A stretch of 64,000 bases of DNA from contig JAXHNB010000005.1 in assembly GCA_034520945.1 (NCBI GenBank), positions 480,001-544,000 on the forward strand. Reading direction: 5' to 3'. The stretch comes from Trueperaceae bacterium (GTDB lineage Bacteria; Deinococcota; Deinococci; Deinococcales; Trueperaceae). The notes beneath the pieces were generated by a model, which was given only the letters and a program-made list of their open reading frames with translations, did no database searches and had not been told where the DNA came from. The translations under genes and the position numbers were made by a program. Shown one piece after another: positions 2,617 to 63,300 of the stretch. Numbering within the stretch: the stretch's first letter is position 1; the number at the start of each line of letters is the position of its first letter.

Positions 2617-4686
2617 ATGGCTACTTCCACCACGATCGACCTACGCTGGGTACGCAACATCGGGATCGCTGCGCACATCGATGCCGGCAAGACCACGTTG
2701 ACGGAGCGGATCCTGTTCTACGCCGGCCGCATCCACAAGATGGGCGAGACGCACGAGGGCGGCTCGCAGATGGACTGGATGGAGCAGGAGAAGGAGCGCG
2801 GCATCACCATCACCTCGGCTGTGACGCAGTGCGCCTGGAACGACCACCGCATCAACATCATCGACACCCCGGGCCACGTCGACTTCACGATCGAGGTCGA
2901 GCGCTCGATGCGCGTGTTGGATGCTGCGGTGGCTGTGTTCGACGCTTCGCAGGGGGTCGAGCCGCAGTCGGAGACGGTCTGGCGCCAGGCCGACCGGTAC
3001 CACGTGCCGCGGCTGGCGTTCGCCAACAAGATGGACAAGACCGGGGCCGACTTCCAGTTGGTGCTCGACTCGATGGACGAGCGCCTGGGGGCCAACGCGG
3101 TGCCGATCCAGTGGCCGATGGGGGCGGAGGACAAGTTCCTCGGCGTGATCGACCTGGTCGAGATGAAGGCGTACACCTTCATGGACGACATGGGCAAGGA
3201 CATCCGCATCTCCGACGTTCCCGAGGAGTACGCCGAGACGGCCAAGGCGAAGCGCAACCTGATGGTCGAGCGGCTGGCCGACGTGGACGACGAGGTGGCG
3301 ATGGCGTACCTCGAGGGCGAGGAGGTCGACGTCGACACCGTGAAGAACGCCATCCGGAAGGGCGTCATCGCGCTCGAGGTGTTTCCCGTGATGTGCGGCT
3401 CCGCGCTCAAGAACAAGGGCGTGCAGCGCGTCCTGGACGCGGTGACCTACTACCTGCCCAGCCCGTTGGACGTCCCGCCGATTCACGGCCTGCTGCCCGA
3501 CGGCAGCGAGGAGAGCCGGCCGGCCGACCGGGACGCGCCGACCGCGGCGCTGGCGTTCAAGATCGCGACCGACCCCTACGTGGGGCGCCTCACCTTCGTC
3601 CGGGTGTACTCGGGCGTGCTGGAGGCGGGCTCGTACGTGTACAACGTGTCGAAGGGCAAGCGCGAGCGCATCGGGCGCCTGCTGAAGATGCACGCCAACA
3701 GCCGTGAGGAGGTCGACCGCATCGAGGCGGGCGATCTCGGCGCCGTGATCGGGCTGAAGGACACCACCACCGGCGATACCTTGGCCGATCCCGACCACAT
3801 GATCGAGCTGGAGTCGATCGAGATCCCCGAGCCCGTGATCACGGTCGCGATCGAGCCGGTGTCGAAGGCGGACCAGGACAAGCTGAGCAACGGCATCGCC
3901 AAGCTGGCGGAGGAGGATCCGACCTTCCGCGTCGAGACCGACCCCGAAACCGCCCAGACCAAGATCTCGGGCATGGGCGAGTTGCACCTCGACATCATCG
4001 TCGACCGCCTGCGGCGGGAGTTCAAGGTGGCCGCCAACGTCGGCGCGCCGCAGGTCGCCTACCGCGAGACCATCACGCGGCCCGTGGACGTGGAGGGCAA
4101 GTTCGTCCGGCAGACCGGCGGGCGTGGGCAGTACGGTCACGTCAAGATCAAGGCGGCGCCGCGCGACCGCGGCGAGGGGTTCGAGTTCGAGAACGCCGTC
4201 GTGGGCGGGACCATCCCCAAGGACTACATTCCCGCGGTGCAGAAGGGCGTCGAGGAGGCCATGCAGAACGGGCCGCTCCTCGGCTTCCCGATCGTGGACG
4301 TGAAGGTGACGCTGTACGAGGGCTCCTACCACGAGGTGGACAGCTCCGAGATGGCGTTCAAGATCGCCGCGTCGATGGCCATTCGGAACGTGATGGCCCA
4401 GGGCGGCGCCGTCCTCCTCGAACCCGTGATGCGGGTCGAGGTCGTCACGCCCGAACAGCACATGGGCGATGTGATCGGCAATCTGAACTCGCGCCGCGGC
4501 CAGATCCAAGGCATGGAGCCGCGCGGCAAGTACCAGGTCGTCACCGCGCACGTTCCGCTGGCCGAGATGTTCGGCTACGCGACCGACCTTCGCAGCCTGA
4601 CGCAGGGCCGCGCCACCTTCACGATGTTCCTCGATCACTACGCGGAAGTGCCGAAGAGCATCCAGGAACAACTCACCAAGAAGTAA
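2617..4686 (+). CDS. fusA: Elongation factor G
   Basis: [27 protein letters not shown] and GGRGQYGHV motifs; 689 aa. Confidence 0.99.
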
Positions 4687-4700
4687 GGAGCTGAGGAGTC

Positions 4701-5918
4701 ATGGCGAAAGCGACGTTTGAGCGTTCGAAGCCGCATGTGAATGTGGGGACGATTGGGCATGTGGATCATGGGAAGACGACGTTGACGGCTGCGATTACGT
4801 TTGCGGCTGCGGCGGCGGATCCGTCTGCTGAGACGATGTCGTATGAGCAGATCGATAAGGCGCCGGAGGAGAAGGCGCGGGGGATTACGATTAATACGGC
4901 GCATGTGGAGTATCAGACGGGGGCGCGTCATTATTCGCATGTGGATTGTCCGGGGCATGCGGATTATGTGAAGAACATGATTACGGGGGCGGCGCAGATG
5001 GATGGTGCGGTGTTGGTGGTGTCGGCGGCGGATGGGCCGATGCCGCAGACGCGTGAGCATATTTTGTTGGCGCGTCAGGTGGGGGTGCCGTATGTGGTGG
5101 TGTTTTTGAACAAGGTGGACATGGTGGATGATGAGGAGTTGTTGGAGTTGGTGGAGATGGAGGTGCGGGAGCTTTTGTCGAGTTATGAGTTTCCCGGCGA
5201 TGATGTGCCGGTGGTGTCGGGGTCGGCGTTGAAGGCGTTGGAGGCGTTGGTGGCGAATCCGAATGTGCAGCGGGGTGAGGATTCGTGGGTGGATCAGGTT
5301 TGGTCGTTGATGGATGCGTTGGATGGGTATGTGCCGACGCCTGAGCGTGATGTGGATAAGCCGTTTTTGATGCCTGTGGAGGATGTGTTCACGATTACGG
5401 GTCGTGGGACGGTGGCGACGGGTCGTGTTGAGCGGGGTGTGGTGAAGACGGGGGATGAGGTCGAGATCGTGGGGTTGTCGGCGACGCGGAAGTCTGTGGT
5501 GACGGGTGTGGAGATGCATCGGAAGACGCTTCAGTCGGGGATGGCTGGGGATAATGTGGGGGTTTTGTTGCGGGGGGTTGCGCGTGATGAGGTGGCGCGG
5601 GGTCAGGTGTTGGCGAAGCCTGGGTCGATTACGCCGCATACGAAGTTTCGGGGGTCGGTGTATGTGTTGCGGAAGGATGAGGGGGGTCGGCATAGTGCGT
5701 TTTTTGCGGGGTATCGGCCTCAGTTTTACTTTCGTACGACGGATGTGACGGGGGTGTGTACGTTGCCGGGGGATGTGGAGATGGTGATGCCGGGGGATAA
5801 TGTGGAGTTGTCGGTGTCGTTGATTAAGCCGATTGCGATGGAGGAGGGGTTGCGGTTTGCGATTCGTGAGGGGGGTCGTACGGTGGGTGCGGGTGTCGTG
5901 ACGGGGATCGAGGAGTAA
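4701..5918 (+). CDS. tuf: Elongation factor Tu (extreme G/T-ending codon usage)
   Basis: [34 protein letters not shown] and [13 protein letters not shown] motifs. Confidence 0.99.
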
Positions 5919-5921
5919 GCC

Positions 5922-6242
5922 GTGGCGACCCCGAAGATTCGCATCAAACTGAAGGCGTTCGACCACCGCAGCCTCGACAGCTCCGCCACCCGGATCGTCG
6001 ACACCGTTCGCCGCACCGGCGCCGACGTGGCGGGACCGGTGCCGCTGCCGACGCGTGTGCGCCGGTTCTGCGTCCTTCGTAGTCCGTTCACGGACAAGGA
6101 CAGCCGCGAGCACTTCGAGATCCGTACCCACAACCGGTTGATCGACATCAAGTCGCCCACCAAGGGCACGATCGACAGCCTCATGCACCTCGACCTCCCG
6201 ACAGGGGTGGACATCGAGATCAAGACGGTCGGAGGCCGCTAG
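5922..6242 (+). CDS. rpsJ: 30S ribosomal protein S10
   Basis: [18 protein letters not shown] and [11 protein letters not shown] motifs. Confidence 0.98.
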
Positions 6243-6865
6243 TGAAAGGAATCCTCGGCACCAAGGTGGGCATGACCCAGGTCTGGCGCGGTGAACGGTT
6301 GATTCCCGTCACCGTCGTCCTGGCCGGTCCGTGCCCCGTGGTGCAGCGAAAGACCGCGGCCCACGACGGCTACGACGCCGTCCAACTGGGCTGGGACGAG
6401 GTTCGAGAATCGTCGGTGAACAGGCCGACGAAGGGGCACTTCGACGCGCACGGGGCGCCGCCGCAGCGGCACCTCGTCGAGTTCCGCGACTACGCGCCCG
6501 AGGACGACTCGGTCACGGTCGAGGTCTTCGACGGCGTTCAGGTGGTCGACGTCATCGGCACCACCAAGGGACGTGGCACCGCCGGCGTCATAAAGCGCTG
6601 GAACTTCTCGGGCATGCCCGCCACCCACGGCACCAAGAAGAAGCACCGCCACCCGGGCTCGATCGGGACCGGCCAGACGCCGGGCCGCGTGTACAAGGGC
6701 CGCAAGATGGCGGGCCGCTACGGGGCGAAACCGGTCACCACGATCGGGCTCGAGGTGTTCGAAGTGCGCAAGGACGACAACCTGCTGTTGCTGAAGGGCG
6801 CCGTGCCGGGTCCCAAGGGCGGCATGGTGGTCGTCAAGCAATCGCAACGGAAGAAGGTGAGCTGA
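6242..6865 (+). CDS. rplC: 50S ribosomal protein L3
   Basis: [20 protein letters not shown] and HRHPGSIG motifs. Confidence 0.98.
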
Positions 6866-7458
6866 TGCCGGTCACGCTGGACGTCGTCGGCAGCGGCCGC
6901 ACCGTGACGTTGGACCTGCCCGAGCCTCAGGAGTCGGTGCTGCACGAAGTCGTCGCCTGGCAGTTGGCCAAGAGGCGCCGGGGCACCGCCGCCACCAAGT
7001 CGCGGGGCAAGGTCGCGGGCTCCACGGCGAAGATCTACCCGCAGAAGGGGACCGGCCGCGCCCGACACGGCAGCCGCAAGGCGCCGATCTTCGTGGGCGG
7101 CGGGATCACCTTCGGCCCCGCGCCTCGTTCGTACGGCTACACGCTGCCGCGCCGCGTCCGCAAGCTCGGACTGCACATGGCGCTGGCGGCCCGGGCCCAA
7201 GAGGGCAAGCTGACCCTGGTCGAGTCGTTCGACGTGAACGGCAAGACCAAGGAGTTCGTCGCCTGGGCACGGGCCAACGGGTTCGACGGCAGCGAGCACG
7301 TGCTGCTGGTCACCGACGACGAACTGGCGCGCCGCGCCGCCCGCAACCTGCCGTGGGTGCACGTGCTGCCGGGTCGCGGCCTGAACGTGTACGACATCCT
7401 GCGTCACGAGGCGCTCATCGCCGACGCCGCGCTGTTCGACGGGGAGGACGCGGAATGA
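6865..7458 (+). CDS. rplD: 50S ribosomal protein L4
   Basis: [11 protein letters not shown] and PIFVGGG motifs; TGATG coupling with rplC. Confidence 0.97.
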
Positions 7459-7742
7459 ATGTTCACGACGTGATCCGGCGACCCGTGCTGAGCGAGAAGG
7501 CCGTCTCGGAGATCGAAGCCGGCAAGTACGCCTTCTTCGTGCACCCAGGCGCCAACCGTACCCAGATCAAGGACGCCGTCGAGACCGTGTTCGAGGTCGA
7601 CGTCGTCAAGATCAACCTTTTGAACGTGCCCGGCAAGCTCAAGCGCATGGGGCGGTACCAGGGGCGTAGCCCGAACCGGAAGAAAGCCGTCGTCACCCTC
7701 GCTGCGGGACAGAAGATCCAGCAGCTCGAGGGCCTGACCTAA
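7455..7742 (+). CDS. rplW: 50S ribosomal protein L23
   Basis: PVLSEKA and KKAVVTL motifs; ATGA overlap; gene order. Confidence 0.96.
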
Positions 7743-7752
7743 GGGAGGGGCC

Positions 7753-8589
7753 ATGGCCACCAAGAAGTACAGACCGTATACGCCCTCCCGACGCTTCATG
7801 ACCACCTCCGACTTCGCGGAGGTCACGCATGCGAAGCCGGAGAAGTCGCTGCTGACCCGCATGAAGCGGACGGGGGGCCGCAACAATCGGGGCCGGATCA
7901 CCTCGCGCTTCCGGGGGGGCGGGCACAAGCGTCGCTACCGGATCATCGACTTCCGGCGCCGCGACAAGGAGAGCGTGCCGGCCAAGGTCGCGCGCATCGA
8001 GTACGACCCCAACCGCACCGCCCGCATCGCGCTGCTGCACTACGTCGACGGCGAGAAGCGCTACGTGTTGGCCCCCGAGCGGATCCGCGTCGGGAGCTCC
8101 ATCGTGGCCGGTCCGGACGCCGAACCGGTCGTCGGCAACGCGCTGCCGCTGCGCTTCATCCCGGTCGGGGTGGTCGTGCACGCGGTCGAGCTGGTGCCCG
8201 GCAAGGGCGCACAGTTGGCCCGCAGCGCCGGCACCAGGATCCAGATCCAGGGGCGGGACGGCGCCTACGTCACCTTGCGCCTCCCGTCGGGAGAATTGCG
8301 CCGCGTGCACGGCGAGTGTTACGCCACGGTAGGCACAGTCAGCAATGCCGAGCACAAGAACTTGGTGCTGGGCAAGGCCGGCCGCCAGCGCTGGATGGGG
8401 CGCAAGCCGCACCAGCGCGGGCGCGCGATGAACCCGGTCGATCATCCGCACGGCGGGGGCGAGGGTCGCTCCAGCGGCGGACGCCCGCCGGTCAGCCCCT
8501 GGGGCCAGCAATCCAAGGGTCTCAAGACGCGTGATCGGCGCAAGACCTCGAGCCGCTTCATCGTGCGGCGTCGGAAGGGAAGGAAGTAA
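7753..8589 (+). CDS. rplB: 50S ribosomal protein L2
   Basis: [20 protein letters not shown] and [13 protein letters not shown] motifs. Confidence 0.99.
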
Positions 8590-8852
8590 TGGCGCGCAGC
8601 ATGAAGAAGGGGCCGTTCGTCGACGAGCACCTGCTCACCAAGATCGACGCGGCCAACGAGGCGGGCGACCGCCGCGTGATCCGCACCTGGAGCCGCCGCA
8701 GCACGGTGGTGCCCGAGATGGTGGGCCTCACGCTCGGCGTCTACAACGGGCGGCAGCACGTGCCGGTGTTCGTGCAGGAGAACATGGTGGGGCACAAGCT
8801 CGGTGAGTTCGCCCCCACCCGGACCTTCCGCACGCACGGACGGAGGGAGTGA
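8589..8852 (+). CDS. rpsS: 30S ribosomal protein S19
   Basis: [16 protein letters not shown] and [11 protein letters not shown] motifs. Confidence 0.98.
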
Positions 8853-8853
8853 G

Positions 8854-9195
8854 GTGCGGGCCTCCGCCACCCTCCGCATGCACCGTGCGTCGCCGCGCAA
8901 GGCGCGGCTGGTCATCGACCTGATCCGCGGCAAGGACGTCAGCGAGGCGGAGTCGATCCTGCGCTTCACCGACAAGCGTGCCGCCGCGCCCGTGCTGAAA
9001 CTGCTGACCAGCGCGAAGGCCAACGCCGTCAACAACCACGACATGTTCGAGGACGCCCTCTACGTGTCCGAGGTGCAGGTGGGCGACGGTCCGACGCTCA
9101 AGCGCTTTTTGCCGCGCGCCCGCGGCCGCGCCGATCTTATGCGCAAGCGCACGAGCCACGTCACCATCACCCTGGAGGAACGCAGTGGGCAATAA
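8854..9195 (+). CDS. rplV: 50S ribosomal protein L22
   Basis: [21 protein letters not shown] and KRTSHVT motifs; GTG start inferred. Confidence 0.95.
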
Positions 9196-9943
9196 AATCA
9201 ATCCGCTCGGTTTCCGCCTCGGCGTCAACAAGGTCGCTTCGGCCCGTTGGTACGCCGGCAAGGCCGACTACCCCCGCCTGTTGGCGGAGGACGAGACGAT
9301 CCGCCGGCTGATCCACAAGAGCGTGGGACACGCCGGCATCGCACGGGTCGACATCGAACGCGCCGCGCACAACCTGAACGTCACCGTGTTCACGGCCAAG
9401 CCCGGCGTGGTGATCGGCCGGGGCGGCGAGGCGATCAAGGCGTTGCGGGCGGAGCTGGACAAGCAGATCGACGGCACCGTCGCCGTGAACGTCCAGGAGG
9501 TGCCGAACGCCAACACCAACGGCATGTTGGTGGCGCAGCGCATCCGCGATCAGCTGGAGCGCCGCTTCGCGTTCCGTCGCGCCATGAAGCAGGCGGTGCA
9601 GCGCACCATGGAGTCGGGCGCCAAGGGCGTCAAGATCCGCTGCTCCGGTCGTCTGGGCGGCACCGAGCAGGCCCGGCCCGAGTGGTACAGTGACGGCCGC
9701 GTTCCGCTGCAGACGCTGCGAGCGGATATCGACTACGGCACCGCGGAGGCGCGGACCGCCTACGGCGTGGTCGGGGTCAAGGCCTGGGTGTTCCACGGCG
9801 AGATCGTCGGGGACAAGCAACGCGAGGCCGCCGTGCTGCCCCGTACCCGCCGCGACGACGACGACAAGAAGAAGCGCCGCCGTCCCACGCGTCGCCGCGA
9901 CGCGCCGGGCGGACGCCGCACCCGCGTGAGGAAGGACGACTGA
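9185..9943 (+). CDS. rpsC: 30S ribosomal protein S3 (basic C-terminal tail)
   Basis: [13 protein letters not shown] and [14 protein letters not shown] motifs. Confidence 0.98.
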
Positions 9944-9946
9944 GCG

Positions 9947-10372
9947 ATGCTGCTCCCCAAGCGCGTCAAATACCGCAAGCAGTTCCGCGGTCGCATGAAG
10001 GGCGACACCAAGGGCGGCGACTACGTCGCGTTCGGCGATTACGCCCTGGTCGCGACCGAGCCCGCTTGGATCAAGTCCAACCAGATCGAGGCGTGCCGCA
10101 TCACCATGAGCCGCTACTTCAAGCGCGGCGGCAAGATCTACATCCGCATCTTCCCCGACAAGCCCGTCACCAAGAAGCCGCAGGAAGTGCGCATGGGCAA
10201 GGGCAAGGGCGCGGTCGAGTTCTGGGTCGCGGTGGTGAAGCCCGGCCGCATTTTGTTCGAGGTCGCCAACGTGACCGAGGCGCAGGCGCAAGAGGCGTTC
10301 CGCCTCGCGACCAACAAGCTGCCGATCGCCACCAAGATGGTTTCGCGGGAGATCTACGATGAAGCCCAATGA
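9947..10372 (+). CDS. rplP: 50S ribosomal protein L16
   Basis: [11 protein letters not shown] and RMGKGKG motifs. Confidence 0.98.
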
Positions 10373-10550
10373 GATTCGCAACCTGACGGCGGAGGAGATC
10401 GCGGCCGCCGTGGACGAGCGCCGGGAGGAACTGCTGGATTTGCGCTTCCAGGCCGCGGTCGGGCAGGCGTCGGATCCCCGCCGGATCCGGACCACCAAGC
10501 GAGAGATCGCGCGGCTTCTCACCATCCACCATGAAAAGGAGGCGTCGTGA
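10359..10550 (+). CDS. rpmC: 50S ribosomal protein L29
   Basis: ELLDLRFQ and KREIARLLT motifs; gene order. Confidence 0.95.
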
Positions 10551-10792
10551 AGAGGGTCCTGCAAGGCCGCGTCGTGAGCGACAAGGCCGAAAAGACCGTG
10601 ACCGTGTCGGTCGAGCGGCGCTTCAAGCACCCGCTCTACGAGAAGGTCGTCAGTCGCAGTCAGAAGTATCTCGCGCACGACGAGGAGAACGCCTACGGCG
10701 TCGGTGACACGGTCGAGATCGTGTCCACCCGCCCGGTGAGCAAGCGCAAGCGCTTCCGTGTGAGCAGGCTTCTCGAAAAAGCGCGTAGTTAG
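10547..10792 (+). CDS. rpsQ: 30S ribosomal protein S17
   Basis: [18 protein letters not shown] and RPVSKRK motifs. Confidence 0.97.
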
Positions 10793-10806
10793 GCCTCGGA
10801 GGCATC

Positions 10807-11175
10807 GTGATTCAACAGGAGAGTTATCTCGACGTCGCCGACAACTCCGGCGCAAGGCGGATCCAGTGCATCCGCGTGCTGGGGACGGGACGTCAGTTCG
10901 TGGGCGGGGTGGGCGACATCATCGTCGCCTCGGTCAAGGACGCGATCCCGAAGGGCCAGGTCAAGAAGGGCGAAGTGGTCCGCGCGGTGATCGTCCGTAC
11001 CGCCAAGGAGATCAACCGCAAGGACGGGTCGTCGATCCGTTTCGACGGCAACGCCGCCGTGCTCGTGACGCCCGAGAACGAACCGCGCGGCACGCGCGTG
11101 TTCGGCCCGGTCGCGCGCGAGCTGCGCGAGAAGCGCTTCATGCGCATCGTTTCGCTCGCCCCGGAGGTGCTGTGA
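10807..11175 (+). CDS. rplN: 50S ribosomal protein L14
   Basis: [20 protein letters not shown] and IVSLAPEVL motifs. Confidence 0.98.
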
Positions 11176-11501
11176 TGCCCAGGCGACTCAGGCTCAAGAA
11201 GGGCGATCAGGTCCGCGTCATCGCCGGCAAGAACAAGGGCCTCGAGGGCGAGATCATCGACGTCCAACACCACACCAGTCGCGTGGTGGTCGAGAACGTG
11301 AACATCGTCAAGCGCGCCCAACGCCCCACCCAGGAGAACCCCCGGGGCGGCTTCGACGAGCGGGAGGCCGCGATCCACGCCAGCAACGTGCAGGTGCTCG
11401 ACCCGAACACCAGCGAGCCGACCCGTGTCGGCAGCAAGATCGACGAGAACGGCCGCAAGGTGCGCGTCGCCGTGAAGAGCGGAGTGACCCTCGATGAGTG
11501 A
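11175..11501 (+). CDS. rplX: 50S ribosomal protein L24
   Basis: [15 protein letters not shown] motif and EAAIHASNV. Confidence 0.96.
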
Positions 11502-12063
11502 GGAGCGGACAGTGCAAGCCAAGGTCGAGATCCCCCTGCGGCGCCGCTACGCCGAGATCCGCGACACGCTGCGCGAGCGTCACGGCTACCAGAACCCCAT
11601 GGCCATCCCCACCGTGAGCAAGGTGGTGCTGAACATGGGCATCGGGGACGCCCGGGACGACCGCAAGGCCTTGGAGAAGGCGCAGAACGAGTTGGCGCAG
11701 GTCGCGCTGCAGCGGCCCGTCGTCACCAAGGCGAAGAAGTCGGTGTCCAACTTCAAGATCCGCGCCGGCATGCCGGTGGGGTTGAAGGTCACGCTGCGCG
11801 GTGAGCGCATGTGGGCCTTCCTGGACAAGATGATCAACGTGGCGCTCCCGCGCGTGCGCGACTTCCGCGGCATCAGCGCCAACGCGTTCGACGGGCGCGG
11901 CAACTACAGCATGGGCGTCCGCGAACAGCTGGTGTTCCCCGAGCTGGACTACGACTCCGTCGGTGCCGTGCGCGGCATGGACGTGACCATCACCACCACC
12001 GCCGAGACCGACGAGGAGGCGCGCACCCTGCTCGAGCTCCTCGGCATGCCGTTCAGGAAGTAA
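11494..12063 (+). CDS. rplE: 50S ribosomal protein L5
   Basis: LPRVRDFRG and [10 protein letters not shown] motifs. Confidence 0.98.
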
Positions 12064-12073
12064 GGAGACACGC

Positions 12074-12259
12074 GTGGCAACCAAAGCGAAGATCGCCTCC
12101 GCCAAGCGCACGCCCAAGTTCTCCGTCCGGGCCGTGAACCGGTGCAATCGGTGCGGACGCTCGCGCGGCTACCTGCGGGACTTCGGTCTGTGCCGGATCT
12201 GCATGCGGGAGATGGCCCACAAGGGGTACCTGCCGGGCGTCACCAAAGCGAGTTGGTAA
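12074..12259 (+). CDS. rpsZ: 30S ribosomal protein S14 type Z (zinc-binding, 61 aa)
   Basis: CNRC...CRIC and LPGVTKASW motifs. Confidence 0.96.
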
Positions 12260-12335
12260 CGACAACACAGACATCGTGTTTCAGGGGCGCAGGCCGGCGG
12301 AATGGCCGCCGGAACCACCCCCACGGAGGTACAAG

Positions 12336-12731
12336 GTGCACTCTGATCCCATTGCCGACATGCTGAACCGGATCCGCAACGCCGTGGCCGTCGGCCACGC
12401 GCACGTGGACGTCCCCGCCAGCAAGTTCAAGCGCGCCCTCGCCGAGCTGCTGGTCCGCGAGGGCTACCTGAAGGACGCCCGGACCGTCGAGGTCGGCGGG
12501 CACCCCGTGCTCCGCATCGGCCTCAAGTACGGTCCGCGCCGCAAGCCCATCATTCACCAGTTGAGCCGGTTGTCGACGCCCGGCCGCCGCGCGTACACCA
12601 AGTCCAAGCACGTCCCCACGGTGCGGGGCGGCCTCGGGGTCGCCATCGTGTCGACCTCGCAGGGGTTGATGCCCGACCGCGAGGCGCGCCGCGCCGGCAT
12701 GGGCGGCGAACTCGTCTGCGAGGTGTGGTGA
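12336..12731 (+). CDS. rpsH: 30S ribosomal protein S8
   Basis: SDPIADMLNRIRN and GLGVAIVSTSQG motifs; SD GGAGG before the GTG. Confidence 0.97.
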   Translation: MHSDPIADMLNRIRNAVAVGHAHVDVPASKFKRALAELLVREGYLKDARTVEVGGHPVLRIGLKYGPRRKPIIHQLSRLSTPGRRAYTKSKHVPTVRGGLGVAIVSTSQGLMPDREARRAGMGGELVCEVW

Positions 12732-13273
12732 TGTCTCGGATCGGGCGTTGGCCGATTCCGGTCCCCTCGGGGGTCCAGGTGTCCGTGAAGGGCACCAATG
12801 TGCACGTCGAGGGCCCCAAGGGCCAACTCGACGTCGACATCAGTCCCCGCATCCGCGTCGAAGCGGACGAGGACGGCACGCTGACCTTCCACCGTCCCAG
12901 CGACCACCGCGACGACCGTGCGCAGCACGGCCTGGCGCGGAGCCTGGTCGCCAACGCCATCAAAGGCGTGAACGAAGGGTTCGTGAAGCGCCTGGAGATC
13001 CAGGGGGTCGGCTACCGCTGCCAGATGAAGGGCGCGGCCCTGGAACTGGCCGTCGGGTACTCGCACCCCGCCCGCATCGAACCGCCCGAGGGCGTCAGCA
13101 TCGACGCGCCACAACCGACGCGGATCGAGATCCGCGGCATCGACAAGCAGGCCGTCGGTCAGGTCGCCGCCGACATCCGCGCCGTCCGTCCGCCCGACGC
13201 CTATCACGGCAAGGGCGTGCGCTACGAGGGCGAACGCGTGCGACTCAAGGCCGGCAAGGCCGCGTCCCGTTGA
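12731..13273 (+). CDS. rplF: 50S ribosomal protein L6
   Basis: [15 protein letters not shown] and [13 protein letters not shown] motifs. Confidence 0.97.
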
Positions 13274-13293
13274 GCCGGAAGGGGTAGGCAGAG

Positions 13294-13641
13294 ATGAACG
13301 AACGTACCGCCAGACAGCGTCGCACCCTCCGGACCCGGCGCAGGATCCGCCGCCCGGTCGAGACCGGCCGGCTGCGGTTGTCGGTGTTCCGGAGCGCGCG
13401 CTACATCTACGCCCAGGTCATCGACGACCGCACGGGCACCACGGTCGCCCAGGCCAACAGCAAGGGCCTGGACGTGGAAGGCGACAAGACGACCCAAGCG
13501 AGCGCGGTCGGCAAAACGTTGGCCGAGCGCGCCCAGGAGGCCGGCGTACGCCGCGTCGTGTTCGATCGCGGTCCGTACCGGTTCCATGGCCGCGTCAAGG
13601 CGCTGGCCGACGGCGCCCGCGAGGGAGGACTCGAGTTCTGA
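13294..13641 (+). CDS. rplR: 50S ribosomal protein L18
   Basis: [15 protein letters not shown] and VVFDRG...HGRVKALAD motifs. Confidence 0.97.
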
Positions 13642-14114
13642 TGGCTGAACAAGACTTCGAAGACAAGGTCATTTTCATCCGCCGCACCGCCAAGACCTAC
13701 AAGGGCGGCAGGCGGTTCCGCTTCGGCGCCATGGTGGTGATCGGGGACCGGCAGGGACGCGTCGGCGTCGGCCTGGGCAAAGCCAAGGAGGTTCCGATCG
13801 CGGTCCAGAAGGGCCAGTACTTCGCGCGCCGCAACCTGATCGAAGTGCCGATCGAGGAGCCCGGCACCATCCCGCACGAGGTGCTCGGCGCGCACGGCAC
13901 CAGCCGCGTGATGCTGAAGCCCGCGGGCGCCGGCACCGGCGTGATCGCCGGCAGCGTGCCGCGCGCGATCGTGGAGCTGGCCGGCTACAGCAATCTGCTG
14001 ACCAAGGAGTTGGGCTCCCGCAACCAGACCAACGTCGCCTACGCCGTGGTGGACGGGCTGAAGCAGCTGACCACCTACGCCGAGTTGAAGGCCGAGCGAG
14101 AGCGGGCGGAGTGA
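13641..14114 (+). CDS. rpsE: 30S ribosomal protein S5
   Basis: [15 protein letters not shown] and GTGVIAG motifs. Confidence 0.97.
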
Positions 14115-14290
14115 TGCGCCTCACCCTCACGCGCAGCCTGATCGGGGTGCCCCGCGACCAACGCGCCACCGTGCGCGCGCTCGGGCTCCGCAAGACCGGC
14201 GACAGCCGCGAGGTGACCGACACGCCTGACGTCCAGGGGATGGTGCGCAAGGTCGCCTACCTGCTGGAGATCGAGGAGGACGTGAAGTGA
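14114..14290 (+). CDS. rpmD: 50S ribosomal protein L30 (absent from ORF track; 58 aa)
   Basis: Manual translation [27 protein letters not shown]...GMVRKVAYLL; lies between rpsE and rplO. Confidence 0.95.
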   Translation: MRLTLTRSLIGVPRDQRATVRALGLRKTGDSREVTDTPDVQGMVRKVAYLLEIEEDVK

Positions 14291-14748
14291 AGCTGAACGA
14301 ACTCGGACCCCCCCGCGGCAGCAAGCCGCGCCGCAGGCGGGTGGGACGTGGCATCGGAAGCGGGCACGGCAAGACGGCCGGCCGCGGCCACAACGGCCAG
14401 AAGTCGCGCAGCGGCTTCAGCCAGAGCGGCGGTTGGGAAGGTGGCCGCTCCACCCTGATCATGCGCCTGCCCAAGCGTGGCTTCAACCGCGTGAAGGAGC
14501 CCGTGCAGATCGTGAACGTGGAGGACCTGAACCGCTTCGACGACGGCGCCACCGTCGATGCCGCCCTGCTGGCCCAAAGCGGCCTGGTGCGCCACGCGGA
14601 GCGGCCCATCAAGCTGCTCGGCGACGGCACGCTGGAGCGGCGCCTCACCGTCTCGCTGGACGCGGTCAGCCGTAGCGCGGCCGCCGCGGTGAGCGATGCG
14701 GGCGGGACGGTCCGCGGCGGCGCGGGCGAAGAAGAGGCGTTGGGCTGA
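14287..14748 (+). CDS. rplO: 50S ribosomal protein L15
   Basis: RVGRGIGSGHGKTAGRGHNGQKSRSG and RLPKRGF motifs. Confidence 0.97.
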   Translation: MKLNELGPPRGSKPRRRRVGRGIGSGHGKTAGRGHNGQKSRSGFSQSGGWEGGRSTLIMRLPKRGFNRVKEPVQIVNVEDLNRFDDGATVDAALLAQSGLVRHAERPIKLLGDGTLERRLTVSLDAVSRSAAAAVSDAGGTVRGGAGEEEALG

Positions 14749-16067
14749 TGCTGGCAGCCTTCCGCAACGCCGCGGCCATTCCGGCCCTGCGCGCCAAGCT
14801 GCTGGTCGTCATCGGCCTTCTGGCCGTGTACCGGTTGCTGGTGTTCATCCCCACGCCGGGGATCGACATCGACCGGCTGCGGGAGGGGAACTTCGGTCAG
14901 GGGGACATCTTCACCCTGCTCAACTTCATTTCGGGCGGCAACTTCGAGGTGTTCTCGATCGCGGCGCTCGGCGTCATCCCCTACATCACCGCCAGCATCA
15001 TCGTGCAGCTGCTCCAATCCACCTGGCCCCCGCTCGAGAAGCTGGCCAAGGAGGGCGAAGAGGGCCGCCGCAAGATCACCCAGTACACCCGCTACGGCGC
15101 GATCGGCCTCGGCGCCATCCAGGCCGTGTTCCTCGCCATCGCCCTGCTCGGGCCGTCCGGCGCCCTCAAGGTCGGCTGGAGCAACGGCCCGTTCTTCTGG
15201 TTCATCGTGCTGGTCACGCAGGTCGCCGGCATCTCGCTGGTGATGTGGCTGGGCGAGAAGATCAGCGAGCACGGGATCGGGAACGGCATCTCGCTGATCA
15301 TCTACGCCGGCATCGTCGCGGCCTTCCCCAGCGCCATCGCGCAGCAGTTCGCGCTGATCGGACGAGGGGAGGGCAACCTGTTCGGGTTGCTGTTCTTCTT
15401 CGCCTTCCTGATCATCGCCCTGGCGGGGATGGTGCTGGTGCAACAGGCCGAGAGGCGCATCCCGGTGCAGTACGCCCGCAAGGTCGTGGGGCGCCGCGTG
15501 ATGGGCGGGCAGTCGACCTACATCCCGTTGCGGATGAACGCGGCCGGCGTGATTCCGATCATCTTCGCCGTGTCGATCATCATCCTGCCGCAGACGATCA
15601 TCGGCGCCTTTCCCGACCTCGGCTGGCTGCAGGCGATCGGCGCGTGGTTCAACCCCGCCCAGTGGCAGGGGTTGATCACCTCGACCGTGATGATCGTGGC
15701 GTTCACCTACTTCTACACCCAGATCAGCTTCGATCCCCGCCGCATCAGCGAGAACCTGCGCGAGTACGGCGGCTTCGTGCCGGGCGTCCGGCCCGGCCAA
15801 CCGACCACGGAGCACCTCACCCGCATCACCAGCCGCATCACGCTGTGGGGGGCGCTGTTCCTCGGCGCCGTCAACGCGTTGCCGCAGACGTTGGCGTGGC
15901 TGACCGGCACCGGGCAGTTGTCGTTCGTGTTCAGCGGCATCGGCCTGCTGATCATGGTCAGCGTGGCGCTCGACACGCTCCGGCAGCTCGAGTCGCAGCT
16001 GATGATGCGTCACTACGAAGGGTTCGTCTCCAAGGGTCGAATCCGCGGTCGCGGGCGGCGCTTCTGA
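14748..16067 (+). CDS. secY: Preprotein translocase subunit SecY
   Basis: ALGVIPYITASII, GIGNGISLII and AGVIPIIFA motifs; multiple hydrophobic segments. Confidence 0.98.
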   Translation: MLAAFRNAAAIPALRAKLLVVIGLLAVYRLLVFIPTPGIDIDRLREGNFGQGDIFTLLNFISGGNFEVFSIAALGVIPYITASIIVQLLQSTWPPLEKLAKEGEEGRRKITQYTRYGAIGLGAIQAVFLAIALLGPSGALKVGWSNGPFFWFIVLVTQVAGISLVMWLGEKISEHGIGNGISLIIYAGIVAAFPSAIAQQFALIGRGEGNLFGLLFFFAFLIIALAGMVLVQQAERRIPVQYARKVVGRRVMGGQSTYIPLRMNAAGVIPIIFAVSIIILPQTIIGAFPDLGWLQAIGAWFNPAQWQGLITSTVMIVAFTYFYTQISFDPRRISENLREYGGFVPGVRPGQPTTEHLTRITSRITLWGALFLGAVNALPQTLAWLTGTGQLSFVFSGIGLLIMVSVALDTLRQLESQLMMRHYEGFVSKGRIRGRGRRF

Positions 16068-16633
16068 TGGCGTCCCAGGTCGTGCTGCTGATGGGGCCCC
16101 CCGGCGCGGGCAAGGGGACGCAGGCCAGCGCCCTGGCCGAGGTCGAGGGTTTGCGCAAGCTGTCCACCGGCGACATGTTGCGCGATCACGTCTCCCGCGG
16201 GACCGAGCTGGGGGCAAAGGCCAAGGCGATCATGGAGGCCGGCGAGCTGGTGCCGGACGACCTGATCACCGCGATGGTCCGGGACGAGCTCGCGGGAATG
16301 GACGAGGTCCGCGTGCTGTTCGACGGCTTTCCCCGCACGCCGGGCCAGGCCGAGGCGCTGGACGAACTGCTGGGGAAGGCCGGCGCGTCGCTCGACGCCG
16401 CCGTATTGCTGGAGGTGTCGGACGAGGAGCTGGTGCGACGGCTCACGCTCCGCGGCGAGCAGGAAGGCCGGAGCGACGACGACGAGGCCACCGTCCGCAG
16501 GCGGATGAAGGTGTATCGCGACACCACCGCGCCGCTGCTGGCGTTCTACGAGGCGCGCGGCACGCTGCACCGCGTGGACGGGACCGGCTCGGTCAGTGAG
16601 GTCACCGAACGGATCCGCGGGGTGCTGGCTTGA
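16067..16633 (+). CDS. adk: Adenylate kinase (short LID)
   Basis: GPPGAGKGTQA, STGDMLR and DGFPRT motifs. Confidence 0.97.
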   Translation: MASQVVLLMGPPGAGKGTQASALAEVEGLRKLSTGDMLRDHVSRGTELGAKAKAIMEAGELVPDDLITAMVRDELAGMDEVRVLFDGFPRTPGQAEALDELLGKAGASLDAAVLLEVSDEELVRRLTLRGEQEGRSDDDEATVRRRMKVYRDTTAPLLAFYEARGTLHRVDGTGSVSEVTERIRGVLA

Positions 16634-17415
16634 ACCTCAAACGCCCAAGCGAAATCGACGCCATGCGCGCTGCCGCCAAGATCAACCGGGCGGCCCTCGA
16701 GGCCGTCGAGACGCGGATCGCCCCCGGCGTGTCCACGATGGAGTTGAACGACGTGGCCGAAGCGGCTATTCTAGAGGGCGGCGGTACGCCTGCCTTCAAG
16801 GGGTACCGCGGCTTCCCCGCGACGCTGTGCACCTCGGTGGGGGAGGTCGTCGTCCACGGCATTCCGGACGATCGACCGCTCCAGGAGGGGGACATCGTGT
16901 CGGTCGACGTGGGGACGTTCTACCGGGGCTACGCCGCCGACATGGCGCGCACGTACGCGATCGGCACGGTCTCGGACGAGGTCCAGCAGTTGCTGGACGT
17001 GACGGAGCGGTCCCTCTACGCCGGCATCGCGCGCGCCCGCCCCGGGGAGCGCCTCGGCGACGTCTCCGCGGCCATTCAGGACGTCGTCGAGTCGGCGGGG
17101 ATGTGGGTCATCCGCGAGTTCGTGGGACACGGAATCGGCCGTGAATTCCACGAACAACCGGACGTCCCCAACTTCGGGCGAGCCGGTACCGGGCCGGTGA
17201 TGCGCCCTGGGCTGGTCCTGGCGATCGAGCCGATGGTGTCGCTTTCGCGGGCCGCGGTGGTGGTCGCGGACGACGGCTGGACCGCGTCGACCGAGACGGG
17301 CGTGCCAGCCGCACACTTCGAGCACACCGTGGCCGTCACCGACGACGGGCCACGCATCTTGACCCAGGCCGATTCGCGCTCAGGGGTCGCGCAGGGAGGA
17401 ACGCATGGCGCGTAG
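16630..17415 (+). CDS. map: Methionine aminopeptidase type I
   Basis: [21 protein letters not shown] and AHFEHTV motifs; TTG start overlapping the adk stop. Confidence 0.96.
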
Positions 17416-17701
17416 ACGAGGAGGCGGACGGGGGCGTCGCAAGAGCGGCGGCCGCGGCCGAGCCGAGAACCGCCAGAAAGGGAACGAGACCACCCAGGAC
17501 TCGATCCGGACCGAAGGCGTCGTCCTCGAGGCGCGTCCCAACACGACCTTCCTGGTGCAGCTCGACGCGGGCCCCGACATCCTCGCTCACGTCGGCGGCA
17601 AGATGCGCCGCCACTACATCCGTATTCTCCCCGGTGACCGTGTCGTGGTCGAAATCAGCACCTACGATCCGGAAAAGGGCCGGATCGTGTACAGAAAGTA
17701 G
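17405..17701 (+). CDS. infA: Translation initiation factor IF-1 with an Arg/Gly-rich N-terminal extension
   Basis: [16 protein letters not shown] and KGRIVYR motifs; SD GGGAGGA before ATG 17405. Confidence 0.93.
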
Positions 17702-17709
17702 GAGCCGCC

Positions 17710-17826
17710 ATGAAAGTACGCGCCAGCGTGAAACCAATGTGTGCGAGCTGCAAAGTGATCCGGCGGGCCGGGCGGGTCTACGTGATCTGCTCCTCGAACC
17801 CGAAGCACAAGCAGAGGCAGGGGTAG
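17710..17826 (+). CDS. rpmJ: 50S ribosomal protein L36 (absent from ORF track)
   Basis: Manual translation [38 protein letters not shown]. Confidence 0.97.
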
Positions 17827-17829
17827 CGA

Positions 17830-18210
17830 ATGGCACGAATCGCAGGCATCGATCTTCCGCGGGAGAAGCGCGTCGAGTTCGCGCTCCCCTACATCTACGG
17901 CATCGGCGTGTCGCGTGCGCGTGCCATCCTCGACAGCGCGGAGGTCGATCCCGACACGCGCGTCAAGGACCTCGCCGAATCCGAAGTCGCCCGCTTGCGC
18001 GAGGTCGTCGACGCCCAGTACAAGGTCGAGGGCGATCTGCGTCGCGAGGTGCAGCTCAACATCAAGCGGCTGATGGACATCGGCAGCTACCGCGGGCTTC
18101 GTCACCGCCGGGGGCTCCCCGTCCGTGGCCAGTCCACCAAGACCAACGCGCGCACCCGGAAGGGGCCGCGCCGCACCGTCGCCGGCAAGAAGAAGGCGCC
18201 GAGGAAGTAG
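17830..18210 (+). CDS. rpsM: 30S ribosomal protein S13
   Basis: [10 protein letters not shown] and [15 protein letters not shown] motifs. Confidence 0.98.
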
Positions 18211-18223
18211 GGGAGGCCGACTC

Positions 18224-18622
18224 GTGGCGAAGCAACAGACCAAGAGCGCGAAGCCGCGCCGGCGCACCAGGCGTACGCTGGCGGAGGGCAAGGCGTTCAT
18301 TCACGCCAGCTACAACAACACCATCATCACCATCACCGATCCCGAAGGGAACACGGTCGCATGGTCGTCGTCGGGGTCGATCGGGTACAAGGGGTCGAAG
18401 AAGGGCACGCCGTACGCGGCCCAGTTGGCCGCGGCGGACGCCACCCGCAAGGCGCAGAACATGGGCCTGGCGACCCTGGACATCGTGATCCGCGGCACCG
18501 GCTCGGGTCGCGAGCAGGCGATCCGCTCGATCCAGGCGACCGGCGTCACCGTCCGCACGATCATCGACGACACCCCCACGCCGCACAACGGCTGCCGACT
18601 TCGCAAGCGGCGCCGGCAGTAG
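18224..18622 (+). CDS. rpsK: 30S ribosomal protein S11
   Basis: ASYNNTIITITD, KGTPYAAQ and TPTPHNGCR motifs. Confidence 0.97.
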   Translation: MAKQQTKSAKPRRRTRRTLAEGKAFIHASYNNTIITITDPEGNTVAWSSSGSIGYKGSKKGTPYAAQLAAADATRKAQNMGLATLDIVIRGTGSGREQAIRSIQATGVTVRTIIDDTPTPHNGCRLRKRRRQ

Positions 18623-18634
18623 GGCAGGAGGATC

Positions 18635-19252
18635 ATGGGCCGATACACAGGACCGATCGTCAAGATCTGCCGCCGCGAAGGGGTGAACCTCGTCGAGACC
18701 CCCAAGGCGCAGAAGTACATGGAACGCCGGCCGTACCCCCCCGGCGAGCACGGCCAGCGCCGTCGCCGCCGCATCAGCGACTACGGGGTGCGCCTGCGCG
18801 AGAAGCAGAAGCTTCGCTTCTTGTACAACCTCTCCGAGAAGCAGTTCGCCAACCTGTTCGTCGAGGCGTCGAAGAAGAAGGGCGCGACGGGAACCGTGTT
18901 CCTGCAACTCCTCGAACGACGGCTGGACAACGTGGTGTACCGGATGGGCATCGCGCACACCCGGCGGCAGGCACGCCAGTTCGTGGCGCACCGCCACATC
19001 GCCGTGAACGGCCGGCGCATCGACGTGCCGTCCTACCGCGTGCAGCCGGGCGACGAGATCGCCGTGGTGGAGCGCTCCAAGAAGAATCCGCACGTCAAAC
19101 AGAACGTCGAGGACCGCCAGCGCGGCAAGACCGTGCCGTGGTTGGACTTCGACCCGGAGAGCCTGAAGGGCGTGTTCCGGCACGTCCCCTCGCGCGAGGA
19201 CATCGTCGTCCCCGTCAACGAGCTGCAGGTCATCGAGTACTACTCGCGTTGA
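18635..19252 (+). CDS. rpsD: 30S ribosomal protein S4
   Basis: [21 protein letters not shown] and IEYYSR motifs. Confidence 0.98.
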
Positions 19253-19269
19253 GCCGCTAGGAGACAAGC

Positions 19270-20208
19270 GTGCAGATCATCCCCGAATTCAAGGCCAAGG
19301 CCACGGAGTCGTACGGCGAGTTCGTGGTGGAGCCGTTGCAGCGCGGCTTCGGCGTCACCCTGGGGAACCCCCTACGGCGCATCCTCCTCTCCTCGATCCC
19401 CGGCACGGCGGTCACCAGCGTGTACATCGAGGACGTGCTCCACGAGTTCTCCACCATCGACGGCATCAAAGAGGACGTCATGCAGATCGTCCTCAACCTG
19501 AAACAACTCGTGGTCAAGCTGTTCGATGACGAGCCGGTCACCCTCACCCTCCGCAGCGAGGGGGCGGGCACCGTCACCGCCGGCGACCTGGACGTCCCCA
19601 TGGGCGCCGAGGTCGTCAATCCCGACCTGTACATCGCCACGCTGGGCGAGAAGGCCAAGCTGGTGATGGAGGTCCGCGTCGATCCCGGCGTGGGCTACGT
19701 GCCCTCCGAGCTGCTGCACGGCCACAAGGACCGCATCAACTCGATCCCCGTCGACGCCGTGTTCACGCCCGTGCGCCGCGTCGCCTACCGCGTGGAGGAC
19801 ACGCGCGTGGGGCAGAAGACCGACCTCGACCGGTTGGTGATCCGGGTGTGGACCGACGGCAGCGTCGCGCCTCGCGACGCGTTGGACCAATCGGTCGAGA
19901 TCCTGCGCGGTCAGCTGAACGTGTTCGGGGGCGACGGCGTGCAGGTCGAAGAGGACGTGCCGGTCGTGACCATTCCCACCCCCGCCGGCGAGCCGGTCCC
20001 CGAGGACGAGCCGCCCCGGCTGAACCTCGAGAGCCTCGAGCTGTCCAATCGTGTGCTGCACTCGCTGCAGGAAGAGGGCATCGACTCCGTCAACGCCCTG
20101 ATGGCGCTGTCGGAACGCGACCTCAAACGCGTCAGCGGCATCGGCGAAAAGTCGCTCGAAGAGATCCGCGAACGGCTGTCCGCCCGCGGCATGAAACTGA
20201 AGGAGTGA
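19270..20208 (+). CDS. rpoA: RNA polymerase alpha subunit
   Basis: [20 protein letters not shown] and HEFSTI motifs; alpha-[13 protein letters not shown]. Confidence 0.98.
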
Positions 20209-20212
20209 GATC

Positions 20213-20575
20213 GTGCGTCACCAGACCGCCGGACGGAAGCTGAACCGGACCAGCAGTCACCGCGTCGCCCTGGCCCGCAGCCAGGCGACCGCGCTGTTGC
20301 GCCACGGCCGCATCAAGACCACCTTGAGCAAGGCGAAGAACCTGGCGCCCTACGTCGAGAAGCTCATCACCACCGCCCGCGGCGGCGACCTGCACGCGCG
20401 GCGCCTGGTCGCGCGCGAAATCCACGACCGCGAGGTGCTGAGCAAGCTGATGAGCGAGATCGGCCCGCGCTACCAGGACCGCAAGGGCGGCTACACCCGC
20501 ATCTACCGCCTGCAGCCGCGCCGCGGCGACGCCGTGCAGGAGGCGCTGATCGAGCTGGTGAACGACGAGGCCTGA
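20213..20575 (+). CDS. rplQ: 50S ribosomal protein L17
   Basis: MRH...[15 protein letters not shown] and RRGDA motifs. Confidence 0.98.
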
Positions 20576-58008: not shown

Positions 58009-58026
58009 CGAAGGTATGCTCGCGCC

Positions 58027-58569: not shown

Positions 58570-58599
58570 GGGTCCCCCAAGCTAGGTAGACACGCGAGG

Positions 58600-58860: not shown

Positions 58861-58902
58861 ACCCCGAACCGAAAACGCTGCTGAACACGAAACGGAGTCC
58901 AC

Positions 58903-60720: not shown

Positions 60721-60814
60721 CCCGGCGGCGCGCGACGCGGCCTACCCCACGGTCAACCGTCACGTCCGCAGGGATAGAGAGCTGCGTATGCTGGTGAATC
60801 GGGAGGCAGGCGAC

Positions 60815-61903: not shown

Positions 61904-63300
<1,397 letters not shown>

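Follow-up and report, generated by a model that had tools for sequence, protein, structure and literature searches.

The gene (tuf) for elongation factor EF-Tu, the most abundant protein of the cell, is a textbook case of codon selection, yet in one member of the Trueperaceae (Deinococcota; GenBank assembly GCA_034520945.1) nearly all of its codons end in G or T, a choice otherwise avoided in this genome. The gene lies in a stretch of 64,000 nucleotides (contig JAXHNB010000005.1, positions 480,001 to 544,000 of the forward strand), hereafter called the window. Only sequence that is kept identical between paralogs carries the bias, which goes together, across two phyla, with genomes containing NucS (also called EndoMS) and no detectable MutS or MutL. 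The same style has appeared convergently in several phyla. It is most likely the long-term product of biased conversion between the tuf copies, and not of translation, transcription or a mutational burst.

The identity of the gene is clear: it matches the EF-Tu family TIGR00485 with 731.2 bits against a cut-off of 522.4, with residues 1-403 covered. The third positions of its 405 sense codons are G in 277 cases, T in 115, C in 12 and A in one, the sole A-ending sense codon being AAA at codon 3. Leucine is encoded by TTG (24) or CTT (2), never by CTG or CTC, and T-ending codons account for 25/26 of Asp, 11/11 of His, 9/10 of Tyr, 11/12 of Phe, 6/8 of Asn and 11/14 of Ile. A first-pass annotation, made by a model from the letters alone, had counted by hand about 12 C-ending codons, one A-ending codon and no CTG or CTC, which is exactly what was found. 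On the sense strand the fraction of codons ending in C (C3) is 0.03 and that ending in T (T3) is 0.28; the G+C content of the gene is 0.59 versus 0.65-0.67 in its neighbours, and the GC skew is +0.35 to +0.59 within tuf versus -0.14 to +0.16 in the flanks. The annotation had also described the edges of the bias as sharp and the neighbouring fusA and rpsJ as C-ending on the same strand, and both descriptions hold. Only 14 nt separate the fusA stop codon from the ATG of tuf and only 3 nt separate the TAA of tuf from the start of rpsJ, and the third positions are ordinary on either side (C 344, G 310, T 26 and A 9 among the 689 codons of fusA; C 59, G 36, T 7 and A 4 among the 106 of rpsJ).

The source genome of the window, called G000 here, is a 10-contig assembly with 97.4% completeness and 5.13% estimated contamination. 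Two of its 12,639 open reading frames (ORFs) of at least 100 amino acids stand apart: both are tuf copies with a fraction of G- or T-ending codons (GT3) of 0.968, the next ORF reaching 0.81. In 2,220 likely genes the keto (G or T) fraction of third positions (K3) is 0.466 ± 0.061 with a maximum of 0.75, which places tuf at +8.2 standard deviations (SD), and genome-wide the two tuf copies are the only places where one codon phase stays at 90% G/T or higher for over 600 nt. A single-copy gene with the same skew, which the annotation had named as a sign against its view, was found nowhere in the genome. Two features of the locus itself may be recorded here. The start codon of rpsJ is GTG and stands so close to the tuf stop that the S10 operon runs on directly from the str operon, leaving no space for a terminator. 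On the opposite strand, an in-phase open frame of 516 amino acids spans all of tuf; it is open because the A-ending sense codons TTA, CTA and TCA are absent, and was set aside as a by-product that does not indicate a gene.

The annotation had suggested looking for a second tuf copy with the same skew, and one exists 191 kb upstream on the same contig, behind genes for tRNA-Thr, -Tyr, -Gly(CCC) and -Thr. The two copies differ at four synonymous sites (gene nt 491, 494, 497 and 665), and their identity stops about 3 nt beyond the start and stop codons, with unrelated flanks. Concerted evolution of tufA and tufB by gene conversion has been reported in 6 phyla and 29 orders (PMC6053082), and the present pair belongs to it: the contexts are the same, fusA-tuf-rpsJ and tRNA(Thr-Tyr-Gly-Thr)-tuf, and near-complete identity is likewise confined to the coding sequence. 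In 9/9 relatives checked, the paralogs are 98.7-100% identical and the orthologs are 79-92% identical at the protein level, as expected of concerted evolution, and in all nine of these two-copy genomes the identity is limited to the ORF, biased or unbiased alike. In pairs from other phyla, identity ends 0-23 nt from the ORF in 16/16 cases. The tRNA-Gly(CCC) of the cluster before the tufB-type copy reads GGG, the main Gly codon in tuf; it was rejected as the cause, as the same cluster precedes the unbiased tuf of the relative G013 (locus L004). In another relative, G005, the fusA-linked tuf copy (L031) contains three internal stops, and the two copies are 98.7% identical with 14 mismatches and 2 gaps. 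This identity and the two gaps suggest indel errors in G-runs of a long-read assembly, and the copy was rejected as an escaped pseudogene.

The most telling evidence comes from recA, the only other repeated core gene in G000. Its two copies share an identity tract internal to the ORF (ORF nt 56-1020), and K3 is 241/321 (0.75) in the tract versus 25/52 and 16/32 in the copy-specific parts (0.49 overall). K3 rises from about 0.4 to 0.87-0.93 exactly at the start of identity and then declines, with values of 0.86, 0.73, 0.86, 0.71 and 0.58 in successive fifths of the tract, within which TTG accounts for 17/28 Leu codons; the copy-specific N- and C-terminal codons have normal K3. Two recA copies are present in all five contiguous assemblies of the family and one in other families of the order. 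The contrast between tract and outside recurs in G005 (0.79 versus 0.43), G019 (0.90 versus 0.53) and G020 (0.88 versus 0.48), with p values from 5e-4 to 2e-9, and no tract enrichment was found in the MutS-bearing G013 (0.50 versus 0.47). As the bias is limited to the internal identity tract, the force follows paralog homology and not the ORF, the transcript or the expression level. The restriction to homology that the annotation had envisaged is thus borne out by the tuf edges and by recA, and so is the strand-specificity of the skew.

How widespread and how old is this style? In seven other genomes of the same family tuf has a GT3 of at least 0.93, in other genomes of the order it is intermediate or normal (C3 up to 0.71), and in each relative examined the skew begins and ends at the tuf gene. 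Six strongly biased orthologs from four genera differ at 11-37% of four-fold sites, with near saturation in the most distant pair, and 628 of 717 differences are G/T transversions, only 41 being transitions. The silent sites thus keep changing while being confined to G and T, and the G/T style of tuf is an old, clade-wide equilibrium in which the coding sequence is intact. The target of the push is the nucleotides of the sense strand themselves: it is seen at wobble sites, in Leu codons (TTG in place of CTG) and in some Ile-to-Val replacements. Four-fold sites in biased tuf are 82% G and 17% T, with GGC replaced by GGG; first-position A is 0.20-0.22 in biased versus 0.25-0.27 in unbiased tuf, and I/(I+V) is 0.20-0.28 versus 0.32-0.37, with neither shift in EF-G of the same genomes. 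The bias peaks towards the 5′ end of the tract and weakens at the 3′ end. The annotation had noticed a relaxation in the last codons, which is weak and not significant in the window gene (C- or A-ending codons 2/25 in the last 25 versus 11/380 elsewhere) and significant (p<0.05) in 8/11 related tuf genes; in 14/16 pairs from other phyla such codons are commoner in the last 25 than in the first 25.

Beyond the order, all species genomes were scanned for a diagnostic G/T-coded version of the motif HVDHGKTT, which yielded at least 120 loci; this sample, being selected by motif, shows the existence of G/T-rich tuf and not its frequency. Full-length tuf genes with GT3 of 0.80-0.97 are found, among the matches listed, in records labelled Trueperaceae, Nitriliruptoraceae, Gemmatimonadales, Gammaproteobacteria, Thermodesulfobacteriota and Brocadia. 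Of the genomes among these matches that were checked for copy number, 7/10 have two copies and three are uncertain, as the gene lies at a contig edge in G046 and G049 and G048 is a fragmented metagenome-assembled genome with one mid-contig copy. In a tree of EF-Tu, the 19 sequences of the order form one clade (100/100), in which the G000 protein is placed inside its genus. Biased genes from other phyla cluster each with the rest of their phylum, and well-supported branches require at least four changes of bias state.

Biased and unbiased genomes tend to differ in mismatch repair. NucS is complete in G000, with its N- and C-terminal domains both recognised (PF21003 and PF01939) and a score of 227.7 bits with NF003270, whose cut-off is 216. 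MutS was not found in this genome, either as a TIGR01070 match (E≤1e-50) or as a MutS_I domain (E≤0.01), and MutL only as 30-bit fragments, none above the cut-off, which at 97.4% completeness falls short of proving absence. Among 28 genomes of the order with tuf data, 11 have a full NucS and no MutS found, with a median GT3 of 0.968 and 10/11 at 0.82 or more; 14 have MutS, with a median of 0.47 and 2/14 at 0.80 or more; and in the three where neither was found tuf is unbiased. Within the family, G013 (MutS, no NucS) is the only unbiased member among the five with contiguous assemblies, and its mismatch repair differs. In both tuf and recA its copies share tracts of 100% identity, and its tuf GT3 is 0.43, so conversion proceeds there without bias.

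The same relation was found in a second phylum, that of the Nitriliruptoraceae match, in an even sample of 121 genomes from which six unpublished ones were excluded. Here a full-length tuf was obtained from 76 genomes, 26 of them with two copies, 44 with one and 6 of uncertain status, giving 70 published genomes with settled copy number. A GT3 of at least 0.68 occurs in 9/26 two-copy versus 0/44 single-copy genomes, which supports the link to tufA/tufB conversion that the annotation had drawn. When NucS is considered as well, this level is reached by 9/11 of the two-copy genomes in which it was found and by 0/15 of those in which it was not, and by none of the single-copy genomes with (0/15) or without it (0/29). 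Eight of the 15 two-copy NucS-negative genomes are also without MutS, and all eight have a GT3 of at most 0.46. Duplication alone was rejected as the cause, since 17/26 two-copy genomes of this phylum are unbiased and the pairs of 9/9 relatives are identical either way.

That the cause of the G/T style is linked to conversion is, in our judgment, highly probable, and a drive towards G/T by strand-polar paralog conversion filtered by NucS is, on balance, the explanation of tuf that we lean to; it comes close to the biased repair during conversion that the annotation had put forward. According to PMC8228993, NucS prefers G-T, G-G and T-T mismatches, with weak or no activity on others, notably A-C, and its recognition site favours G or T; this specificity was described there for archaeal and actinobacterial enzymes and is carried over to the G000 enzyme by analogy. 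Loss of NucS raises homeologous recombination about 10-fold (PMC8228993), and deletion of nucS in Haloferax causes a severe defect in gene conversion (PMC11276520). In the proposed process, a single strand of one copy would pair with the other copy during conversion. A difference of G or T versus A or C would then give either a keto-keto mismatch (G-T, G-G or T-T) or an amino-amino mismatch (A-C, C-C or A-A), two classes being possible because each amino base pairs with a keto base, and the class would be set by which copy supplies which strand: keto-keto when the G/T-bearing strand meets the complement of the other copy, amino-amino in the reciprocal heteroduplex. NucS would recognise and cut only the keto-keto heteroduplex, aborting that conversion. 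If the sense strand is the usual entrant into the heteroduplex, as is assumed, C/A-bearing copies would be overwritten more often than T/G-bearing ones. Differences between G and T would give mixed mismatches and pass freely, so that the tract would drift to G/T wherever the protein tolerates it, and the drive would show itself where codon usage is under weak selection, as in G000.

This model predicts G/T only with turnover between G and T, C-to-G besides C-to-T changes, CTG to TTG and Ile to Val. It also predicts limits at the homology tract, dependence on two copies, and the strongest effect where NucS is the sole surveillance. These predictions agree with the observations. In Salmonella tuf (1185 nt), conversion is 100-500-fold lower at nt 1126, 59 nt from the 3′ end (PMC5485169), which matches the 3′ fading of the bias. 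MutS also has G-T as its favourite substrate (PMC8228993). One conjecture is that this preference may let MutS exert a similar drive in weaker form; another is that the visibility of the drive probably depends on how strong codon selection is. Whether paralog conversion in NucS-only genomes is in general a strand-specific, keto-biased gene conversion, rewriting any long-lived converted tract such as tuf and recA in G/T, seems to us evenly poised.

Several points weigh against the model. The strand polarity is an assumption and the weakest link of the model. The tuf sense strand is the leading strand in G000, and replication orientation as the source of polarity would fit tuf; it was rejected because it does not fit recA in G019 and G020, where the two copies lie in opposite orientation on a single contig, each G/T-rich on its sense strand, which may point to a transcription-linked rather than a replication-linked asymmetry. 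A direct measurement of conversion direction in any NucS organism was not found in the literature drawn on here. An edge effect of conversion alone predicts fading at both ends, and only the 3′ end fades. The counts of repair systems ignore shared ancestry; within family f1 as few as one or two evolutionary events may underlie the contrast, for which G+C content is a confounding factor (the flanks of its unbiased members have a G+C of 0.39-0.56). MutS is present and a full NucS missing in five biased two-copy genomes of other phyla (GT3 0.80-0.89), and in family f4, G031 (0.83) and G027 (0.81) have MutS and only sub-threshold NucS fragments. Conversely, tuf is unbiased (0.35-0.48) in three Deinococcus-like genomes that carry NucS together with MutS, and G119, with NucS, no MutS and copies 99.5% identical, has a GT3 of only 0.43. 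Thus NucS is neither strictly necessary nor sufficient. Finally, the tuf of G018 is a mosaic whose polarity is opposite to the usual 5′-to-3′ fading. Its first ~216 codons are only partly G/T-ending (4-14 C- or A-ending per 27 codons), the last ~190 are almost purely so, and both copies (L006 and L034) are identical; the mosaic may have come from a recent import of the 5′ segment.

If the bias is linked to conversion, its direction need not come from NucS. RecA prefers GT-rich single strands, and either this preference or another glycosylase could be the asymmetric step that sets G/T, with conversion simply far more frequent where MutS is missing. All the homology-tract evidence fits this alternative equally, MutS-bearing genomes of other phyla reach a GT3 of 0.80-0.89, and in Salmonella MutS lowers tuf conversion 200-1000-fold (PMC5485169). 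We consider it a lesser possibility, as it leaves unexplained both the exact keto/amino split, including C-to-G changes at four-fold sites, and the eight unbiased two-copy genomes without NucS or MutS (GT3≤0.46) in the second phylum. Another candidate is selection for a C/A-poor tuf mRNA, which would avoid loading of Rho or carry less secondary structure and would be spread to both copies by conversion. The predicted minimum free energy of tuf mRNA is -441 kcal/mol versus -575 ± 11.6 for 40 synonymous recodings with genome usage (11 SD weaker), the 5′-to-3′ fading would suit the logic of Rho, and Rho is present in 40/41 relatives. Its presence is, however, the same in biased and unbiased genomes, and shuffling the codons of tuf weakens the fold slightly further (-423 ± 5.4), so that the weak folding is purely compositional, and mRNA structure was rejected as the selected trait. 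Against such selection stand the single-copy genomes (0/44 biased in the second phylum), the ribosomal-protein genes and fusA, which lean slightly in the opposite direction, to C, the leaders, which are C-rich, and the copy-specific N-terminal codons of recA, which belong to the same mRNA and are unbiased, the bias beginning with paralog identity. The recA result weakens it strongly, and we regard it as improbable.

Transcription-associated deamination of the exposed sense strand (C to T, A to G) in a very heavily transcribed tufB-type copy, subsequently copied over by conversion, would have the right transition direction, from amino to keto, and one would expect tuf to rank with the most highly transcribed genes. 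The annotation had offered cytosine deamination as an example of its process, and this part is not supported. The four-fold sites are dominated by G rather than T, GGC has become GGG, and the differences between biased orthologs are overwhelmingly transversions. The leaders (94-228 nt, from the last tRNA to the ATG) and 3′ trailers on the same transcripts are C-rich in biased genomes (C 0.29-0.48, T 0.09-0.17, with varying length and sequence), the N-terminal part of recA is unbiased on the same transcript, and MutS-bearing relatives with the same operon layout are unbiased. Deamination is accordingly quite improbable. Still less probable, and contradicted by the data, is ordinary translational selection, in which G/T-ending codons would be optimal in this clade and tuf the gene under the strongest selection. 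tuf is indeed a classic gene of codon selection (PMC4786093), and tRNAs with C34 exist for most NNG codons. Yet 22 ORFs of the ribosomal-protein cluster have a C3 of 0.527 versus 0.485 for the genome and a T3 of 0.043 versus 0.052, and the codon style of fusA is normal. The genome has an ordinary set of tRNAs with no special members: pyrimidine-ending codons are served only by G34 tRNAs, Arg-ACG excepted, so that NNT is read only by G34 wobble. TTG replaces CTG, amino-acid positions are pushed too, and recA, which is not a top-expressed gene, is biased only within its identity tract. Least credible of all, to the point of being negligible, is the possibility that tuf is an assembly chimera, a contaminant or a horizontally acquired foreign gene. 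The 10-contig assembly, its estimated contamination and its large near-identical duplications might invite such a suspicion, and the annotation had itself named a chimeric join and an EF-Tu outside Deinococcota as outcomes that would speak against it. Metagenome contigs from the runs of other studies, however, span the junctions from fusA to tuf (X5, X6) and from tuf to rpsJ (X3), the loose ends of contig X1 match the flanks of the other tuf copy, both copies and many relatives share the codon style, and EF-Tu is nested within its own order and genus in the tree.

How does biased paralog conversion in tuf compare with known systems? Salmonella and E. coli tuf keep translationally optimal, largely C-ending two-fold codons, whereas the G000 tract has lost nearly all silent C and A, and no such compositional drive is described in the portions of PMC6053082 and PMC5485169 drawn on here. 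GC-biased gene conversion (gBGC) is likewise a non-adaptive drive that works through biased handling of heteroduplex mismatches in recombination and is able to override codon selection. It favours G and C on both strands, between alleles, whereas in tuf C is lost and T gained, and the keto bases are favoured on one strand and between paralogs; tuf is thus not a case of gBGC. For NucS/EndoMS of Actinobacteria and Archaea, the preference for G-T, G-G and T-T and the activity against homeologous recombination match the base classes seen here; the literature on it, as represented by parts of PMC8228993 and PMC5290159, treats replication fidelity and recombination barriers rather than the composition of paralogs. 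A 2026 preprint on mycobacterial gene conversion (PMC13061034) speculates, in the part drawn on here, that NucS-related repair asymmetries could reshape the composition of paralogous regions. Full-text literature searches found no published description of G/T-only tuf or of NucS-biased conversion. Asymmetry of transcription or replication, with G over C and T over A on the leading or non-template strand (PMC2031905), resembles the present case in its keto-rich sense and leading strand. The GC skew of tuf is, however, about +0.5 versus about +0.02 for the contig, and it is limited to the paralog tract, whereas such asymmetry should cover the whole transcribed unit, including the C-rich leaders and trailers and the unbiased N-terminal codons of recA.

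Repeat-induced point mutation (RIP) of fungi, to which the annotation had loosely compared the process, depends on homology and alters the base composition of repeated DNA. It acts on all repeats and both strands, changes only C to T and destroys genes. In G000, by contrast, only long-lived core paralogs are affected, on one strand and at synonymous or conservative sites, and the genes are intact, with proteins 79-92% identical to their orthologs. The keto fraction is 0.45-0.62 in 21 of 22 other repeat pairs of at least 600 bp, the exception (0.70) being an internal tandem repeat in a minus-strand gene, and among these pairs neither copies of insertion sequences (IS) nor duplications of 5-25 kb show G/T skew. 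A drive on all repeats was rejected on the strength of these unskewed sequences. Of the checks that the annotation had proposed, the edges of the bias do match the homology limits in tuf, other repeats do not share the skew, and the likeness to RIP is not supported.

If the reading favoured here is true, selection even on the most highly expressed gene can be overridden by a non-adaptive molecular drive, and genome sequence directly reveals the substrates for which a repair enzyme is specific. Biased conversion in prokaryotes would then have a strand-specific, keto-biased form distinct from gBGC, and a new predictable law would tie the chemistry of a repair enzyme to gene composition and even to amino acids (Ile to Val). 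In practical terms, predictors of expression from codon usage and detectors of foreign genes will misjudge tuf and recA in these lineages, and phylogenies of both at the DNA level will be distorted by convergent composition. The coordinates of the features discussed are collected in the table.

Table. Features of the window and of its source genome (G000); plain positions are those of the window
Feature	Position	Strand	Remarks
tuf (EF-Tu), tufA-type copy after fusA	4701-5918	+	392/405 codons G- or T-ending; NCBIfam TIGR00485 match
Paralog-identity (gene-conversion) tract with tufB-type copy at G000:C5:293237-294460	4698-5921		1224 nt, 99.67% identical
fusA (EF-G), upstream neighbour, same operon	2617-4686	+	control; normal codon style, C3 0.50, T3 0.04
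rpsJ	5922-6242	+	control; normal codon style, C3 0.56
Junction of tuf stop and rpsJ GTG start	5916-5924		rpsJ start 3 nt past tuf stop
Ribosomal-protein cluster	5922-20575	+	22 ORFs, 3,890 codons; highly-expressed-gene control
Antisense open frame over tuf	4638-6188	-	516 amino acids
tRNA cluster before tufB-type copy	G000:C5:292666-293122 (L001 927-1383)		Thr(TGT)-Tyr(GTA)-Gly(CCC)-Thr(GGT)
fusA-linked tuf of G005 (L031)	G005:C13:518418-519632		three internal stops
recA copy 1	G000:C2:418501-419628	+	965-nt identity tract internal to ORF; copy-specific N- and C-termini
recA copy 2	G000:C6:599146-600213	-	965-nt identity tract internal to ORF; copy-specific N- and C-termini
Mirror-image C/A gene	G000:C2:316265-317026	-	
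Mirror-image C/A gene	G000:C5:587114-587593	+	
Mirror-image C/A gene	G000:C5:16362-17051	-	
Mirror-image C/A gene	G000:C6:959450-961049	-	
Mirror-image C/A genes, pair	G000:C9:213145-213906 / C5:586154-586675	- / +	
Large duplication	G000:C1:274916-295200 / 295206-315488		
Large duplication	G000:C2:47290-64159 / 64384-81254		
Large duplication	G000:C8:51707-57075 / 57074-62446		
Large duplication	G000:C10:2862-28492 / C5:869904-895528		

The large duplications just listed are 98.6-99.5% identical over 5-25 kb and lie in tandem or at contig ends. They may be assembly redundancy (strain haplotypes), matching the estimated contamination, rather than real repeats. Separately, ARAGORN returned some odd tRNA calls in G000, namely a tRNA with a four-base anticodon (agcg), a tRNA-Ser(ACT), and unusually long predictions for tRNA-Ala and tRNA-Trp (95-101 nt), which may be false positives or intron-bearing genes.

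Genes in the examined repeat pairs have a K3 of 0.38-0.61 save three, and these belong to a set of genes that are the mirror image of tuf, with codons almost only C- or A-ending (K3 0.10-0.28, C3 0.63-0.76, A3 0.12-0.17). The set includes a cytochrome c gene with an internal tandem repeat of 543 nt, an IstB/IS21 pair, a DUF1670 gene and a YgjP-like gene. Their style could come from this drive acting with the strand polarity reversed, or from codon usage of foreign origin.

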